From the NCBI GenBank assembly GCA_036390995.1, contig DASWAT010000083.1, forward strand, positions 3,052 to 67,051: a stretch of 64,000 nt of DNA, in the 5' to 3' direction. The notes below the pieces were generated by a model. That model saw only the letters and a list, made by a program, of their open reading frames with translations, was not told the DNA's origin and did not search any database. Position 1 is the stretch's first letter. Each line of letters begins with the position of its first letter. A program made the position numbers and the translations under genes. This DNA comes from Actinomycetota bacterium. GTDB taxonomy: Bacteria; Actinomycetota; UBA4738; HRBIN12. This document shows, in pieces, positions 34,367 through 51,855 of the stretch.

Positions 34367-34831
34367 ATGAGACCTTCCACGCGCTGGATCGCGGCCCTGG
34401 TCGGCATCGCCGTGGTGGTGGCGCTGTTCGTCGTCCTTCGCCCGGACGGGTCGTCCTCGGGCTCGAGCGGGTCGGACGTGTCTCCCACCGGGGCGGCGTC
34501 CCCCGCGACGACGGGGACCGGGGGGCCGTCGCCGACCGGGGCGCCCTCGGCCACGCCCACCGGCGGCGACGTCGCCGAGCTCGACGTCACGGTCCGGAAC
34601 GGCGACGTCCAGGGGCCGGGCGAGTTCGACGTCACGCAGGGCCAGGAGGTCCGGATCGTCGTGGACGCCGACGTCACCGACGAGGTTCACGTCCACGGCT
34701 ACGACCTCCACGACGACGTCTCGCCCGGCGAGCCGGCCGAGATCGAGTTCACGGCGAACGCGCCCGGCGTGTTCGAGGTCGAGCTCGAGAGCCAGGGCAA
34801 GCTGCTGTTCGAGCTGAAGGTGTCGCCGTGA
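34367..34831 (+). CDS. Secreted cupredoxin-like/EfeO-N-like beta-sandwich protein with Pro/Thr/Gly-rich linker
   Basis: TM/signal segment (IAALVGIAVVVALFVVL), a low-complexity PTGAASPATTGTGGPSPTGAPSATPTGG linker, then DVTVRNGDVQGPGEFDVTQGQEVRIVVDADVTDEVHVHGYDL...GVFEVELE. Confidence 0.5.
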   Translation: MRPSTRWIAALVGIAVVVALFVVLRPDGSSSGSSGSDVSPTGAASPATTGTGGPSPTGAPSATPTGGDVAELDVTVRNGDVQGPGEFDVTQGQEVRIVVDADVTDEVHVHGYDLHDDVSPGEPAEIEFTANAPGVFEVELESQGKLLFELKVSP

Positions 34832-45969: not shown

Positions 45970-46455
45970 ATGCCGACGTCCTGGTCATGGTTCACGTTCT
46001 GGCTCCTCGTGCATCTGCTGGCCGTCGCAGTGGCGCTGGGTCCGACGTTCGTCTTTCCACTGATCATCCGCTTGTCCGAGCGTCGACCACGGCACGCCGT
46101 CTTCGGCAAGGAGCTCGACGTGTTGATCCAGACGCGCCTGGTCCTGCCAGCGCTCCTGGTGGCCGGCCTCTCCGGTATCGGACTGATCGTGACCGCGAAC
46201 GTGGATCCGGCCGGCTCCGAGTGGCTCCTGATCTCGCTGGGGCTCTACGCGGTGTTGCTGGCGTTCTCCGTGGCGATCCAACTGCCGGCCACCAGGCGAG
46301 CGGTAGTGCTGCTGCGCGACGCGGCCGGCGGCGACCCCTCGCCGAAGCTCGCTGCCGTGAACCGTCAGCTGCGCCGCGCCGGAGGCGTCCTGTCGATCCT
46401 GTTCCTCTCGATCCTCGTGCTGATGATCTGGCGGCCGGGCGCCGCCGTGGGTTGA
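45970..46455 (+). CDS. DUF2269-like 4-TM membrane protein
   Basis: ATG 45970 after gaggagggga. Four TM helices (WFTFWLLVHLLAVAVALGPTFVFPLI etc.). Confidence 0.55.
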   Translation: MPTSWSWFTFWLLVHLLAVAVALGPTFVFPLIIRLSERRPRHAVFGKELDVLIQTRLVLPALLVAGLSGIGLIVTANVDPAGSEWLLISLGLYAVLLAFSVAIQLPATRRAVVLLRDAAGGDPSPKLAAVNRQLRRAGGVLSILFLSILVLMIWRPGAAVG

Positions 46456-46516
46456 GGGGGGCGAGGAGCCCCCGGAGGTCATCCGGGGGCTCTCGCGGGT
46501 GAGGTCGTCGCTCGCG

Positions 46517-47872
46517 CTAGGTGTAGAGCGTCACCTGGCCGGCGATCCTGCCCTGCTCGTCGAACAGGAAGGCCGTGACACCGTACATGCCCTCCCAGCC
46601 ACCGCTCCCGTGGTAGAGCTCGAGGTACCCGGCGAGCCGCCCCCGGATGGTGACGTCGGATGCCCGTTCGAGCGTCAGATCGCCGAACTGGTTCATCGAC
46701 GTGAGCGCCCCCCGGATCGCGTTGCGACCCTCGTAGACGTCCGGCGTCGTCCCGTCGGTCGTGACCATGATCGCGTCCTCGGCGTAGAGCTCGGCCGCCG
46801 CGTCCATGTTGCCGGTGCTGATGGTGGCGAGCAGCTCGTCGATGGTCGCCACCCGTTTGCTGATCGCCTTCGGTTTGATCCACGTCCCCGCCGACTCGGG
46901 GCCGGACGTGTAGAGCGTCGCCTGGCCGGCGATCCTGCCCTCCTCGTCGAACAGGAAGGCGGTGACACCGTACGTGCTCTCCCAGTTGGTCCCGTGGTAG
47001 AGCTCGAGGTACCCGGCGAGCCGCCCCCGGCCGATGACGTCGGATGCCCGTTCGAGCGTCCAGTCGCCGGACACGTTCATCGAGGTGAGCGCTCCCCGGA
47101 TCGTGTCGCGTCCTTGGACGACCTCCGGGATGGACCCGTCGGTCGTAACCATGGTCGCGTCCTCGGCGTAGAGGTCGGCCGCGGCCTGCATGTCATGACT
47201 GCTGATGGTGGCGAGCAGTTCGTCGATCGCCGCCTCGGCGTTCAGCGGCACCGGCGTCGGCAGCCTCGCCGGCTCCGAGGGCGCGAACAGGCTCACGCCC
47301 ATGACGACGAGGCCGACGGCGACCACCAGGCCGGCGAACGGCAGCCAGCGGAAGAGCCGTGGCCGCCCGGCCTTCTCGGGCCGGACCTCGGGGAGCTGCA
47401 TGCTCGGGATCCGGATCTCCTGCCGTGCCTTGCTGTCCATCTCGGTTCCCCCTTCCGATGGAGCGGTGCGTGGCTCGGCCGCCGGTCCATGGGCCGGAGC
47501 CGTCCCCGCACCGATTGCCCCGTGAGCGGCAAGGGCGGATCGTCCGCGGAGGCGGACGATCACGAGCGCGCTGACCCCCAGCAGCACGATCCCCGCGCCG
47601 ATGGCCAGGGTGGGCAGGACGACCCCCGCCACACCGTCGCCCGGGGTCGTCGGGGCCGAGACCCCGCCGGCCGGCTGCGTCGCACCCTGCTCGCGGAGCG
47701 CGAGCAGGGCGCTGCCGATCCCGACGGCGGCGATCACCAGGCTGGCGACGATCGTGGCGATCCGCTGGGTGCGGAGCTTGCGCTCTCGCCGTCGGACCAG
47801 GCGATCCATCGCCGGCTCGGGCATGTCGAACCGCCGGCCCGCCCGCTCGAGCATCACAGACGTGTCCCTCAT
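46517..47872 (-). CDS. Sigma-coupled 3-TM membrane protein (putative anti-sigma/sensor) with two tandem NTF2/SnoaL-like domains
   Basis: ATG 47872-47870 overlaps the sigma stop (ATGA). N-terminal MRDTSVMLER...RRRERKLRTQRIAT, three TM helices, then two approximately 80%-identical NTF2-like/SnoaL_2 (DUF4440-like) repeats (ATIS..MD/QAAA[DE]LYAEDA.MVTTDG...GRLAGYLELYHG...GVTAFLFDE.GRIAGQ.TLYT). Confidence 0.6.
   Translation of the reverse strand: MRDTSVMLERAGRRFDMPEPAMDRLVRRRERKLRTQRIATIVASLVIAAVGIGSALLALREQGATQPAGGVSAPTTPGDGVAGVVLPTLAIGAGIVLLGVSALVIVRLRGRSALAAHGAIGAGTAPAHGPAAEPRTAPSEGGTEMDSKARQEIRIPSMQLPEVRPEKAGRPRLFRWLPFAGLVVAVGLVVMGVSLFAPSEPARLPTPVPLNAEAAIDELLATISSHDMQAAADLYAEDATMVTTDGSIPEVVQGRDTIRGALTSMNVSGDWTLERASDVIGRGRLAGYLELYHGTNWESTYGVTAFLFDEEGRIAGQATLYTSGPESAGTWIKPKAISKRVATIDELLATISTGNMDAAAELYAEDAIMVTTDGTTPDVYEGRNAIRGALTSMNQFGDLTLERASDVTIRGRLAGYLELYHGSGGWEGMYGVTAFLFDEQGRIAGQVTLYT
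46524..47297. repeat. Intragenic in-frame tandem duplication (2 x 387 bp) encoding two NTF2-like domains
   Basis: Copies at about 46524-46910 and 46911-47297, for example gtgtagagcgtcacctggccggcgatcctgccctgctcgtcgaacaggaaggccgtgacaccgtacatgcc versus gtgtagagcgtcgcctggccggcgatcctgccctcctcgtcgaacaggaaggcggtgacaccgtacgtgct. The protein repeats are about 80% identical. Confidence 0.7.
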
Positions 47873-48366
47873 CGTTGCGCTCCGAGTTCGTCCTTCATGG
47901 CCGCCCGCGCCTCGGCTGCGAGCGAGCGGACCGACGTTGGCTTGACCCCGAGGAGCCGGCCGGCCTCGGCCGACCCGTACCCGAGCAGGTCCGTGAGGAC
48001 GACGGCCGCGCGCTGGCGCCGCCCCAGCTTGCCGAGGGCCCGCAGGACGGCGTCGCGGAGATCCGCTTCCTCGTAGGGGTCGTTCGATCGGAGCGGCTGG
48101 ACCACCACGCGGGCGGCCCGCAGCACCCGTCGCTTCCGACTTCGGAACCCATTCATGGCCGACCGGTACAGGTAGCCGGTCGGCTTCTCCATCTCGCGCA
48201 CCCGGTCCCACCGCTCCCAGATGTGGAGGAAGGCGTCCTGGGTGAGCTCCTCGGCCTCGTGCGGGTCACCCGTCATGAGGCAGAGCGCCCGGAAGAGCCC
48301 TCGACGCTCGGACTCGAAGAACTCCTCGAAGGTCGCCGCGCCCGTGGTCGCGGTCGCTTGGGCCAT
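47869..48366 (-). CDS. ECF (sigma-70 family) RNA polymerase sigma factor
   Basis: Start at MAQATATTG (ATG 48366) with RBS gggaggga. Region 2 (DAFLHIWERWDRVRE, YLYRSAMNGFRSRKRR) and region 4 (QRAAVVLTDLLGYGSAEAGRLLGVKPTSVRS). Confidence 0.8.
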   Translation of the reverse strand: MAQATATTGAATFEEFFESERRGLFRALCLMTGDPHEAEELTQDAFLHIWERWDRVREMEKPTGYLYRSAMNGFRSRKRRVLRAARVVVQPLRSNDPYEEADLRDAVLRALGKLGRRQRAAVVLTDLLGYGSAEAGRLLGVKPTSVRSLAAEARAAMKDELGAQR

Positions 48367-48410
48367 GGGCCGTCCCTCCCGAACGGCCAGTGCCGCGAAG
48401 GACGTGTACG

Positions 48411-48434
48411 CGCTCACGTCCCATGAACGCTCGG
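48411..48434 (-). promoter_or_regulatory. Conserved dyad element upstream of ECF sigma gene 1 (candidate autoregulated promoter/operator)
   Basis: + strand cgctcacgtcccatgaacgctcgg (sense strand CCGAGCGTTCATGGGACGTGAGCG), 45-68 nt upstream of ATG 48366. A near-identical element sits in the same position relative to the second sigma gene. Confidence 0.35.
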
Positions 48435-48663
48435 TCCGCCCTCGTCGTCCACCGGGCCCTGCTCGCGAGGGTCGCCCGAGCGTCCGGGGAGATCCGTGTG
48501 CCCCGAGTCCCCATGCTCGATGGGGCTCGCCCCGTCACCAAGGGCCTATCGGGCTATGGTCCACAGGACCGGTCGGCGACCGGCTCGAAGGACGACACCG
48601 CGGGACCGGGCGTGGCCGGTCCCTGCAACCCGCGCCCGGTCCCTGAACCAGGTGAGCCCTTGG

Positions 48664-49692
48664 TTACCCTCCGATCACCCGGAGCATGACCGCCGGGAAC
48701 ATCCGATCCGCGCTCGTGTTCCCCGTTGCGCATGTCACGGCGTAGAGGCCCTCGTCGAGGGGCCACGAACGGAGCGTGCCCGAGCCGACGATGTACTGCG
48801 CGTCGGTCACCCACGACGGCGGCGCCGAGGGGGGGTCACGACGGCTCGACCGCTCGACCTGCTCCCATGTGACGCTGGGTTCCAGGCTCGCGAGCGTGAG
48901 CCCGGAGCTCTTCGCGGCGGTCGTGTACCGGAAGATCCCCACGGTACCGGCGGCGACTTCCGTCGGACCGGCGTAGGAGCACCGCGTGCCGTCGAAGGTC
49001 ACCTGTGCCTCCATGACCGAGCTCGTCGTGTAGGGGACGATGGCGGTCGCGCCGGTCCCGCTCGGGGGGGCCGCCGCCTCCTCGCCGGAGCGGTCGATCA
49101 ACACGAAGGTGCCGAGGGCGACCAGCCCCGCGGCGAGCACGATCACCGCGATCGTGAGCCACCGGTTCGTGCGGCGGACCCTCCCGTCGTCCATGCGGAT
49201 GTCGGGAAGACGCACGCCGCCTGTCGTCTCGATCCGTGACTTGCTGTCCATGGTGGTACCTCCCTCCTCCGTCCCGGCGCGCGTGCCGGTCGCCGGTCCA
49301 TGGCCCGGACCCGGTGACGCGCCGGTTCGTCGCTCGTGTGCGCCCGATGCCCCGGGGCGAGCCCGGAGTCGGGCGATCGTCATGGCGGTGAGCCCCACCA
49401 CGGCGATGCCGATCCAGATGGCCAGGGTCGGCAGGACGAAGCCCGCGATCCCGTCGCCGCCGGGAGACGGCGGCGACGAAGCTCCGCCGGCCGGCTCCAT
49501 GGCGCCGCCCTCCCGCAGCGCGAGGAGGGCGCTGCCGATCCCGACCACGGCGATCGCCAGCGCCCCGACTACGGTGGCGATCCGCTGCGCGCGCAGCTTG
49601 CGCTCCCGCCGACGGAGCAGGCGTTCGATCGCGGGCTCGGGCATGGGGACCCGTCGCTCGATGCGCTCGAGGGTGGACCGGTAATCAGGCAT
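48664..49692 (-). CDS. Second sigma-coupled 3-TM membrane protein with unrelated beta-rich C-terminal domain
   Basis: ATG 49692 overlaps the sigma-2 3' end by 8 nt. N-terminus and TM region are collinear with the 46517-47872 product (MPDYRSTLERIERRVPMPEPAIERLLRRRERKLRAQRIATVVGALAIAVVGIGSALLALREGGA...), but the C-terminus is a different domain (TAIVPYTTSSVMEAQVTFDGTRCSYAG...). Confidence 0.6.
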   Translation of the reverse strand: MPDYRSTLERIERRVPMPEPAIERLLRRRERKLRAQRIATVVGALAIAVVGIGSALLALREGGAMEPAGGASSPPSPGGDGIAGFVLPTLAIWIGIAVVGLTAMTIARLRARPGASGAHERRTGASPGPGHGPATGTRAGTEEGGTTMDSKSRIETTGGVRLPDIRMDDGRVRRTNRWLTIAVIVLAAGLVALGTFVLIDRSGEEAAAPPSGTGATAIVPYTTSSVMEAQVTFDGTRCSYAGPTEVAAGTVGIFRYTTAAKSSGLTLASLEPSVTWEQVERSSRRDPPSAPPSWVTDAQYIVGSGTLRSWPLDEGLYAVTCATGNTSADRMFPAVMLRVIGG

Positions 49693-50185
49693 GGTCGTGC
49701 TCCATCGCTCGCCGGAGCGCCGCCCGGCCCTGGGCAGCGAGGTTCCGGATCGTGGTGGGTCGGACGCCCAACAGCTCCGAAGCCTCGGAGGATCCGAAGC
49801 CGAGGAGCTCGGTCAGGACCAGCGCCGCGCGCTGCCTGGGGGCGAGCCCGCGGAGCGCCCGGACCACCTCGTCGTGCAGATCGGCGCGCTCGTACGGGTC
49901 CTCGGACGTCTGCGACGGCAGGAGCTCGCGGGTCATCCGCGCCAGGCGTCGCCGCCGGCTGCGGAACCCGTTCATCGCGGTCCGGAACAGGTAGCCGTCC
50001 GCGTGCTCCATCTCGCGGACCCGGTCCCAGCGCTCCCAGACCGCCAGGAACGCGTCCTGGAGGATCTCCTCGGCCTCGCCGACGTCGCCGGTCATGAGGT
50101 AGACCGCCCCGAACAGCCGGCGCCGCTCGGCCTCGAAGAACTCCTCGAAGGCCCGGGCGGGCGCGAGGACGGTCTCTTGGGCCAT
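49685..50185 (-). CDS. ECF sigma factor (paralog of 47869-48366)
   Basis: Start at MAQETVLAPARAFEEFF (ATG 50185) after ggaggagggacgg. Region 2 (DAFLAVWERWDRVRE, YLFRTAMNGFRSRRRR) and region 4 (QRAALVLTELLGFGSSEASELLGVRPTTIRN). Confidence 0.8.
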   Translation of the reverse strand: MAQETVLAPARAFEEFFEAERRRLFGAVYLMTGDVGEAEEILQDAFLAVWERWDRVREMEHADGYLFRTAMNGFRSRRRRLARMTRELLPSQTSEDPYERADLHDEVVRALRGLAPRQRAALVLTELLGFGSSEASELLGVRPTTIRNLAAQGRAALRRAMEHDHA

Positions 50186-50229
50186 CGGCCGTCCCTCCTC
50201 CACGGCCACGGACCCCGACGGCGCGCATC

Positions 50230-50253
50230 CGTTCACGTCCCATGAACGTTCGG
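50230..50253 (-). promoter_or_regulatory. Conserved dyad element upstream of ECF sigma gene 2
   Basis: + strand cgttcacgtcccatgaacgttcgg, containing a perfect inverted repeat CGTTCA-N7-TGAACG, 45-68 nt upstream of ATG 50185. Confidence 0.35.
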
Positions 50254-50347
50254 GAGCGGATCCGCGTCTAGACGCCTCGATGCTCGTTCGGAACCGGTTC
50301 GGCCGGCAGGGGCGTTGGGCCCCTCGGGCGGGTGCCCGGGTCCGACC

Positions 50348-50897
50348 TCAAACGTCCACGCGGCCGCCGGTCCGCCAGTACTCGCCGCGCTCGCGGGCCA
50401 GGAAGCCCTCGTCCACCAGGTACCGGCGGAGGGACGCGTGGTCGTTGAGGAAGCGGCCGACGATGACGTTGACCTGCTTCTCGTCGTAGCGGACGCCGGG
50501 CTCGAACTCGAGCGCGATCCGCTCGAGCACGATGCGCCGCTTCGTCTCCTTCGAGGGGATCTCGACGAGGCGGCCGTTGCGGAAGAAGGCCCGGAGCACC
50601 GCCTCCTCGCTCTCGTCGGCGGCCCCCAGGGCGATGCCGGTCTCCCTGGGCGGCCCGACCTGCTCGGCGGCCCACCGGAGGGTCTCGGGCAGCCGATAGA
50701 TCCGGCGGTCGTCCTGGAGGCGGACCACCCCGGTCCCGGTGAGACGGTTCAGGTGCTTGCGAACCCGCGCGAGCGGCAGGCCGAGCTCCGACGCGAGCTC
50801 CCCCGCCGGTGAGCGCCCGCCGTGCCCAGGCACCCGCGATGGCCAGGCGCTCGGGGTCGGCCAGCGCTCGGAGGATCTCCTCGGGGGTCTCGGCCAT
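50348..50897 (-). CDS. ArsR-like HTH + DUF2087 regulator, apparently frameshifted in the HTH (possible pseudogene or sequencing error)
   Basis: The N-terminus MAETPEEILRALADPERLAIAGA is in one frame (ATG 50897-50895). The rest of the HTH and the DUF2087 domain (GELASELGLPLARVRKHLNRLTGTGVV...LRRYLVDEGFLARERGEYW) is in the -1 frame of ORF 50348-50833. The switch occurs around the C5 homopolymer at 50811-50815. Confidence 0.5.
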
Positions 50898-51855
50898 GTC
50901 GGTGGCTACTCCTACCATCCGGAGCGTGGAGGCAACCATCCCGCTCACCGCGACCCAGCGAAGGACGCTCGATGGCCTCATCGGCACCGGTGAGCGCCCC
51001 ACGTTCCCGGGCGACCTCGTGTCCCGGGTGCGGGACCGTATCGAGGAGGCAGCCCGCGGGTGCGAGCTTGCCGAGCCCCTGTGGCTCGGCAAGTCGAACC
51101 TCAGCGATCTCGGGCGGTGCCCTGGCCTGTTCGACGCCGTCCGCGCGGGAGAGCGGGGCCCGTTCGCGTTCTCGGCGCGGTTCGCCGCCGGCCGCCTCGC
51201 GCACAAGGCGGTCGAGCTGGAGGTCGCCGGGCGCGAGGACCGGGATCCGCACGGTCTGGTCCAGGAGGCCGTGGATCGCCTCGTCGAGGACGACGCCTTC
51301 CGCGCGTTCTGGGACGGGCTCGACCACCTCCGGCGCGACGAGACCCTCATGGAGTCGGCGAAGTCGCTCGAGCTGTTCCGCTCGACGCTGCCGCCGCTCC
51401 GGCGGATGCGCCGGGACCTCGCTCCCTCCACCGAATGGCACGTGCGTGCCGAGCTCCTCGGCGGCGCGGTCGTGCTCTCGGGGACCCTCGATCTGGTCCT
51501 CGGCTCCTCCTCGGCGGCCGAGCCCACCCGGGCAACCCGGCTGGCGATCGACCTGAAGACCGGCCGGGCCTGGCCCGAGCACGCGGAGGACATGCGCTTC
51601 TACGCGCTCCTGCTCGCGCTCCGCTTCGGCGTGCCTCCGTACCGGGTCGCGACGCTGTACCTCGACTCGGGGGAGTGGGTGGCCGAGGACGTCGACGCCC
51701 GGGTCCTCGACCGGGCAGCCGACCGCGTGATCGACGCTGTCCGCGCAGTCGCCGCCGCCTCGGCGGGTCGGGCGCCTGTGCTCCGTCCCGGTCCCTACTG
51801 CACCTGGTGCCCGCGCGCGGCGACGTGCCCATCCAGCGCCGCCCGCATCGCCTGA
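50896..51855 (+). CDS. PD-(D/E)XK nuclease, Cas4/RecB-like with 4-Cys Fe-S cluster signature
   Basis: An N-terminal Cys (LSDLGRCPGLF), motif II (GTLDLVLG), motif III D-x-K (RLAIDLKTGR), the QhxxY-like RFYALLLA, and a C-terminal C-x2-C-x5-C (YCTWCPRAATCP). This is the Cas4/AddB-type Cys ligand arrangement. Confidence 0.65.
   Translation: MSVATPTIRSVEATIPLTATQRRTLDGLIGTGERPTFPGDLVSRVRDRIEEAARGCELAEPLWLGKSNLSDLGRCPGLFDAVRAGERGPFAFSARFAAGRLAHKAVELEVAGREDRDPHGLVQEAVDRLVEDDAFRAFWDGLDHLRRDETLMESAKSLELFRSTLPPLRRMRRDLAPSTEWHVRAELLGGAVVLSGTLDLVLGSSSAAEPTRATRLAIDLKTGRAWPEHAEDMRFYALLLALRFGVPPYRVATLYLDSGEWVAEDVDARVLDRAADRVIDAVRAVAAASAGRAPVLRPGPYCTWCPRAATCPSSAARIA

Follow-up and report, generated by a model that had tools for sequence, protein, structure and literature searches.

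The promoters of SigE and SigH of Mycobacterium tuberculosis are of the form GGAAC-N16-17-CGTT, and those of SigE of Streptomyces coelicolor are of the 'AAC ... TC' type. Bipartite motifs that are over-represented in front of ECF sigma genes, with 16-18 bp between their two parts, are an accepted signature of autoregulation, and autoregulatory promoters of ECF sigma factors have been predicted one group at a time (PMC7826278; PMC7776599). The predicted ECF promoters of actinobacteria include those of leaderless transcripts, and their preference at -1 is for a pyrimidine, at +1 for a purine (PMC7776599). Leaderless genes are common among actinobacteria, and in mycobacteria a 5' ATG or GTG is both necessary and sufficient for leaderless translation (PMC4633059). 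For the sigR gene of S. coelicolor, a sigma-dependent promoter that yields an N-terminally longer product has been described (PMC4921905, citing Kim et al. 2009).

The locus described here carries two ECF sigma genes in tandem, each preceded by a copy of the same 24-nt element. Sequence comparison established a conserved bipartite motif at this position, a fixed spacing between its parts, an in-frame start and a link between the -35 box and a residue of σ4. We hold with good confidence that the element would be the downstream half of an ECF promoter joined to a leaderless-type GTG, with each sigma factor reading its own promoter; it is probably not a separate operator.

Organisation of the locus

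The window, by which is meant the whole 64,000-nucleotide stretch of DNA that was analysed, contains two modules on the minus strand, in each of which a sigma gene overlaps the gene of a membrane protein. The features of the two modules are as follows.

47869..48417, minus strand: ECF sigma factor 1 (182 aa from GTG, 165 aa from ATG), with Pfam domains Sigma70_r2 and Sigma70_r4_2
46517..47872, minus strand: module 1 membrane protein with two SnoaL-like (SnoaL/NTF2-like) domains, its start overlapping the sigma stop codon
49685..50236, minus strand: ECF sigma factor 2 (183 aa from GTG, 166 aa from ATG), with Pfam domains Sigma70_r2 and Sigma70_r4_2
48664..49692, minus strand: module 2 membrane protein, its first 8 nt shared with the end of the sigma gene
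48411..48434, minus strand: copy 1 of the 24-nt motif, reading CCGAGCGTTCATGGGACGTGAGCG (48434..48411)
50230..50253, minus strand: copy 2 of the 24-nt motif, reading CCGAACGTTCATGGGACGTGAACG (50253..50230)

The best NCBIfam match of the two sigma factors is TIGR02983 (SigE family, Streptomyces-type), with 112.5 and 123.7 bits, which is below the cutoff of 141.55, and the structures of M. tuberculosis SigE are matched weakly (49 bits); the proteins are therefore assigned to an uncharacterised ECF subfamily. The N-terminal 199 aa of the module 2 membrane protein are 54% identical to the module 1 protein, the similarity being limited to these ~199 residues, and its C-terminal domain had no match in Pfam or NCBIfam. 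For the membrane protein of module 1, a role as anti-sigma factor or sensor is putative and suggested by position only.

Both membrane-protein ORFs possess an in-frame internal Shine-Dalgarno (SD) sequence and ATG (47438-47440 and 49249-49251, minus strand), encoding '...GG(T)(E/T)-MDSK...', after which a second short segment on the cytoplasmic side leads into a transmembrane helix and then an outer domain. This could represent internal initiation or the fusion of two genes. The fused layout is also present in L082, L001 and L093 (loci of the comparison set, described below, are cited by L number), and L001 has in addition a stand-alone gene starting at the MDSK motif. Just upstream of module 2 is a gene for an HTH/DUF2087 regulator (50348-50897, minus strand) which looks frameshifted, its start ('MAETPEEILRALADPERLAIAG') being in one frame and the rest ('SPAGELASELGLPLARV...DUF2087') in another. 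DUF2087 homologs are also found near the sigma gene in L003, L093 and L081.

The original prediction, that one motif stands upstream of both sigma genes, holds for the sequences at both positions. The two copies are identical at 22 of 24 positions, and a search of the 64-kb window with up to three mismatches revealed no third copy (0.00 expected by chance). From the 3' end of each copy to an SD-led ATG (at 48366 and 50185) is 45 nt, and both ATGs are preceded by the Shine-Dalgarno sequence GGAGGG. The DNA 5' of the motif does not align between the modules, the 21 nt 3' of it have diverged, and the two sigma proteins show only 63% identity; the duplication must therefore be old, and the identity at 22 of 24 positions reflects selection. 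The motif is thus no leftover of a recent duplication. The tandem order is conserved in another MAG (L082, CAZXFA010000006.1), where a TAGAC-type module is followed by a TGGAC-type one ~3.2 kb downstream, and the paralog pair is therefore considered old and syntenic. The tandem promoters of L082 are as follows.

L082:2880-2908: TAGAC-type promoter
L082:6109-6137: TGGAC-type promoter

Probable promoter motif

The comparison set consisted of 159 homologous loci, 80 from metagenomes and 79 from species-representative genomes. All the genome records in it are MAGs of uncultured Actinomycetota, and the source genome of the window is not among them (best match 79% identity). The upstream regions of most homologs carry GCGTTCATG. 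Using [GA]TTCAT alone as an anchor, the 150 nt upstream of the sigma gene were searched in the 154 loci with enough upstream sequence; the anchor was found in 106 non-redundant loci out of the 154 searched, as against 2 of 312 control windows. Upstream of the anchor, T[AG][AG]AC stands at a spacer of 17 bp in 51 of the 106 non-redundant loci, whereas none of the other spacers between 11 and 24 has it, and the dinucleotide AC is at the -35 place defined by this spacer in 80 of them. The family promoter pattern is thus T(A/G)(A/G)AC-N17-(C/G/T)GTTCAT, with the consensus T-(A/G)-A-A-C-G ... (C)GTTCAT, and the window contains it as follows.

48447..48451, minus strand: module 1 -35 box TGGAC, exactly 17 bp upstream of CGTTCAT and outside the 24 nt of the original prediction
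48423..48429, minus strand: module 1 -10 box CGTTCAT, the left half of the 24-nt motif
50266..50270, minus strand: module 2 -35 box TAGAC, 17 bp upstream of CGTTCAT and likewise outside the 24 nt
50242..50248, minus strand: module 2 -10 box CGTTCAT, placed by the family anchor and the clade alignment

Copy 1 accordingly begins within the spacer, of which it contains the final 5 nt, and continues with the -10 box, GGGAC (5 nt), GTG, the AGC codon and a G. In the 11-sequence alignment of the window clade T.GAC, GTTCATGG, CGTG and the next CG are all invariant and the spacer varies; the core of the -35 box in this clade is GAC in place of the commoner AAC, which counts against the promoter reading.

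In the 795 kb of homologous loci together with the window, the strict pattern matched 60 times. Of these matches 58 are on the forward strand, each of them directly 5' of a sigma gene of this family (the second paralogs in L082 and L141 among them), and two arise where the palindromic promoters of L135 and L147 are read on the reverse strand. Within the window the strict pattern is present at the two sigma genes only (chance expectation 0.13-0.43), and in the 795 kb plus the window no promoter targets beyond the sigma operons were found. In the N17 spacer, the types of -35 and -10 core, the position and strand 5' of the sigma gene and the conservation among orthologs, both copies agree with an ECF promoter.

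In L135 (2938-2967) and L147 (2941-2970) the whole promoter is palindromic, ATGAACG-N15-CGTTCAT, so that the pattern matches on both strands; in promoters of the TGAAC subfamily, TGAACG at -35 and CGTTCA at -10 are reverse complements of each other. A relaxed search of the window gave one extra match with a single mismatch, TGGAC-N17-GGTTCAC at 34662-34690 (plus strand), which lies in overlapping long ORFs and is probably due to chance (0.43 expected per window).

Predicted start site and start codon

The right half of the motif, GTGA(A/G)CG, opens with a GTG, whose distance from the C of CGTT is 13 nt. Since this C is located at about -12 in ECF promoters, +1 would fall on the G of the GTG, and the preference for a pyrimidine at -1 and a purine at +1 is matched in the window clade by an invariant C|G. 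Two candidate start codons are present in each module.

48415..48417, minus strand: module 1 GTG, predicted transcription start and leaderless-type start codon, in frame with ORF 47869..48417
50234..50236, minus strand: module 2 GTG, predicted transcription start and leaderless-type start codon, in frame with ORF 49685..50236
48364..48379, minus strand: module 1 alternative start, with SD GGAGGG at 48374-48379 and ATG at 48364-48366, 17 codons after the GTG
50183..50198, minus strand: module 2 alternative start, with SD GGAGGG at 50193-50198 and ATG at 50183-50185

In 99 of 106 homologs an open, in-frame start codon (ATG or GTG) is located 12-18 nt from the C of the -10 box. The ATG and GTG codons in this interval number 114 in frame as against 10 out of frame, and most of those loci are without an SD-led alternative start. 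Both window copies do possess such an alternative, GGAGGG and an ATG 51 nt after the GTG. It is possible, if rather unlikely, that the promoter is correctly placed and the GTG is only the initiating nucleotide, in which case the mRNA would have a 51-nt leader and translation would begin solely at the SD-led ATG, giving the 165- and 166-aa products of the NCBI annotation. GGAGGG followed by ATG is found in 9 of the 11 clade members, database gene calls in the clade are mostly of 166-168 aa, and the GTG is out of frame in L093. The 17-codon stretch between the two starts also shows weak peptide conservation, and the nucleotide substitutions in it have, as we read the clade alignment, no clear third-codon-position bias; both points count against a start at the GTG. 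Against translation from the ATG only, the GTG is invariant in 11 of 11 clade members and in frame in 10, and the stretch between GTG and ATG varies in length by whole codons only (16 codons in L001). At the place of the downstream ATG, L081 has ATA and L082b has ATC with no SD, which leaves the GTG as the sole canonical start in these two, and the homolog P0005 has 179 aa, a length equal to that of the GTG-started L081 product. The wider family, moreover, starts at the position of the GTG, and a 5' GTG suffices for leaderless translation in mycobacteria (PMC4633059). From these comparisons the GTG is probably a working start codon in the window clade, and the SD-led ATG is probably used as a second one. 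The annotated starts of sigma genes in the clade may thus be 17 codons too short.

The frame of the GTG in L093 is altered by a 1-nt deletion relative to the clade alignment (L093:2433-2520), which is either an assembly error or the mark of a lineage relying on the SD-led ATG only. In nine more distant homologs (L004, L021, L023, L047, L064, L065, L066, L072 and L076) the gene starts with ATG(A/G)ACGAAC or ATGACCGAAC, specifying M-(N/D/T)-E-, so that a -35-like (A/G)ACGAAC string is repeated right after the leaderless ATG. Conservation of an N-terminal peptide, or else a signal at the DNA level, could account for this repeat.

Other readings of the element

The motif, which contains the inverted repeat CGTTCA-N7-TGAACG, had also been proposed as a possible operator for an additional regulator. 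The repeat is present as described, perfect in copy 2 and with 5 of 6 positions complementary in copy 1 (0.09 expected by chance), and a dimeric regulator, for example the neighbouring HTH/DUF2087 protein, might be imagined to bind it across the -10 box and the start and so repress both modules. Arm complementarity of at least 5/6 is commoner in the homologous promoters than in shifted control windows (28 of 106, five of them perfect, against 4 of 106), and the DUF2087 gene recurs near the sigma gene in the three loci named above; those three loci, however, have no better dyads than the others, and in 78 of the 106 homologous promoters complementarity is at most 4/6. The two arms are not equally conserved. 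The left one, being the -10 box, does not vary, but GAA in the right arm is changed to GAT, GAG, GGA or GCT among close orthologs, and the symmetric half-site conservation by which an operator is recognised is not seen across them. As to the excess over the controls, it is explained by the start codon, since CAT, with which the -10 box ends, has ATG as its reverse complement; the GTG of the window pairs through its TG with the CA of the box, and second codons beginning with A, which are common among the homologs, add to the excess. With the right arm made up of GTG and a variable second codon, an operator is disfavoured and we regard it as very unlikely. Nor is it at all probable that a transcript from further upstream carries the element in its leader as a sense-strand hairpin (8-9 bp stem, 3-nt loop) affecting the stability or translation of the RNA. 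When both strands were folded the sense RNA gave -12.7 kcal/mol, but this energy is unexceptional (z = -1.1 and -1.8, with 25 and 9 of 200 shuffles at least as stable). Within the clade an A-to-G change keeps a G-U pair, on the sense strand only, in three sequences (W_mod1, L036 and L042), but a T or C breaks the pair in six, including T in L001-L003 and L081 and C in L093. The left arm, furthermore, is upstream of the predicted transcription start, and a scan of 48300-50400 for sigma-70 promoters and terminators found none. No Rfam family matched the element in a scan of 46000-51500; the sole match with E<=1 was to a CRISPR-repeat model, sub-threshold, on the other strand ~500 nt from the element and unrelated to the motif.

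The ECF-type promoter is thus the preferred reading. The suggestion that the motif is a shared autoregulated ECF promoter stands in that the motif belongs to an ECF-type promoter of the sigma genes, which is probably autoregulated; it fails in taking GGGAC for the -35 box. GGGAC resembles the ECF -35 sequence GGAAC, and copy 2 has a CGTC 16 nt downstream of it which might serve as a -10 box within the diverged DNA. The CGTC of copy 1 is, however, only 13 nt downstream, so that the spacings differ, the orthologs have GGGGC, GGTGC or GGTTC in place of GGGAC, and the family-wide -35 and -10 boxes are elsewhere: GGGAC comes after the -10 box and ahead of the start, and the real -35 box is T(G/A)GAC. 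A -35 function for GGGAC is hence scarcely credible. CGA(A/G)C at the beginning of the motif was also considered as a -35 box and rejected, the orthologs having AGGC or GGGC there.

Specificity of the paralogs

The sigma-2 orthologs L001, L002, L003, L081 and L082a, which are 71-75% identical to sigma 2, all have TAGAC as the -35 box, and the sigma-1 orthologs L014, L036, L042, L108 and L082b, 69-72% identical to sigma 1, all have TGGAC. The σ4 residue following T-V/I-R, read from a MAFFT alignment, is distributed among the types of -35 box as follows.

TAGAC: N in 6 of 6
TGGAC: S or T in 8 of 8, with E or D four residues further on
TAAAC: V in 18 of 19
TGAAC: S in 16 of 18
GTAGC: T in 10 of 10

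Such covariation is what self-recognition predicts and, confounded as it is by phylogeny, is suggestive. Because the -35 box is lineage-specific and covaries with σ4, diverged specificity and separate self-regulation are favoured over the common control of both modules that had been envisaged from the motif; the shared 24 nt are the family-wide part of the promoter, and the part that tracks the σ4 residue differs between the lineages. Cross-talk between the modules is possible, since their -35 boxes differ by a single base. In tandem paralogs the covariation would be a small natural example of promoter insulation.

Proposed mode of expression

In the scheme that we propose, region 4 of each sigma factor would bind the -35 box (TGGAC for module 1, TAGAC for module 2), and region 2 would bind the -10 box CGTTCAT 17 bp downstream. 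The first nucleotide transcribed is most likely the G that opens the GTG of the invariant C|GTG (13 nt from the C of CGTT), to give an mRNA of the leaderless type in which the GTG would occupy the position of the only start codon of most relatives; in the window clade the SD-led ATG 17 codons downstream is probably also usable. Each sigma factor most likely reads its own promoter, constituting positive autoregulation, and the co-transcribed membrane protein may hold its activity in check. The transcription start site, the sigma factor acting at each promoter and the start codon used are predictions of this scheme.

The conserved block is thereby given a corrected anatomy, comprising the -10 box, the predicted start site and the start codon, with a module-specific -35 box outside the coordinates first flagged. 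The resulting promoter model, T(A/G)(A/G)AC-N17-CGTTCAT and then an ATG or GTG, is usable for regulon searches, and it covers a large uncharacterised ECF subfamily of uncultured Actinomycetota.

A more extended scenario, which we think unlikely in its entirety and offer tentatively, is that an ancestral leaderless gene gained an SD-led start, so that one promoter specifies two sigma isoforms, and that the paralogs became insulated by one base of the -35 box. If so, the long form would arise by leaderless translation and the short one from the SD, and their ratio could shift under conditions favouring leaderless translation; the insulation would consist in the reading of A or G in the -35 box by N or by S/T at the σ4 position. 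The result would be a one-promoter analogue of sigma-R/sigma-R'.

Comparison with known systems

Autoregulated ECF promoters and leaderless genes of actinobacteria are both well established, and nothing in the present locus is surprising to a specialist. In having two in-frame starts, the sigma genes of the window resemble that of sigma-R/sigma-R' of S. coelicolor (PMC4921905, citing Kim et al. 2009). The sigR gene has two separate promoters, whereas only one promoter is seen per sigma gene in the window, and the sigma-R' extension destabilises the long form, whereas the two products of each window gene are hypothetical.

The likeness to actinobacterial leaderless mRNAs lies in the in-frame ATG or GTG, set close to the -10 box at a constant distance, the pyrimidine at -1 and the lack of an SD in most members of the sigma family. 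The window clade is unlike them in that its GTG coexists with an SD-led ATG 17 codons downstream, and it uses GTG where the wider family mostly uses ATG. With respect to the promoter itself, the -10 box is unusually long and invariant (GTTCATG) in comparison with known ECF promoters, and the -35 core of the window clade is GAC. In their rigid 17-bp spacer, a -35 box ending in (A/G)AC, a -10 box built on CGT(T), the position immediately 5' of a sigma/membrane-protein operon and conservation across orthologs, the two promoters resemble the autoregulatory promoters of ECF (group 4) sigma factors.
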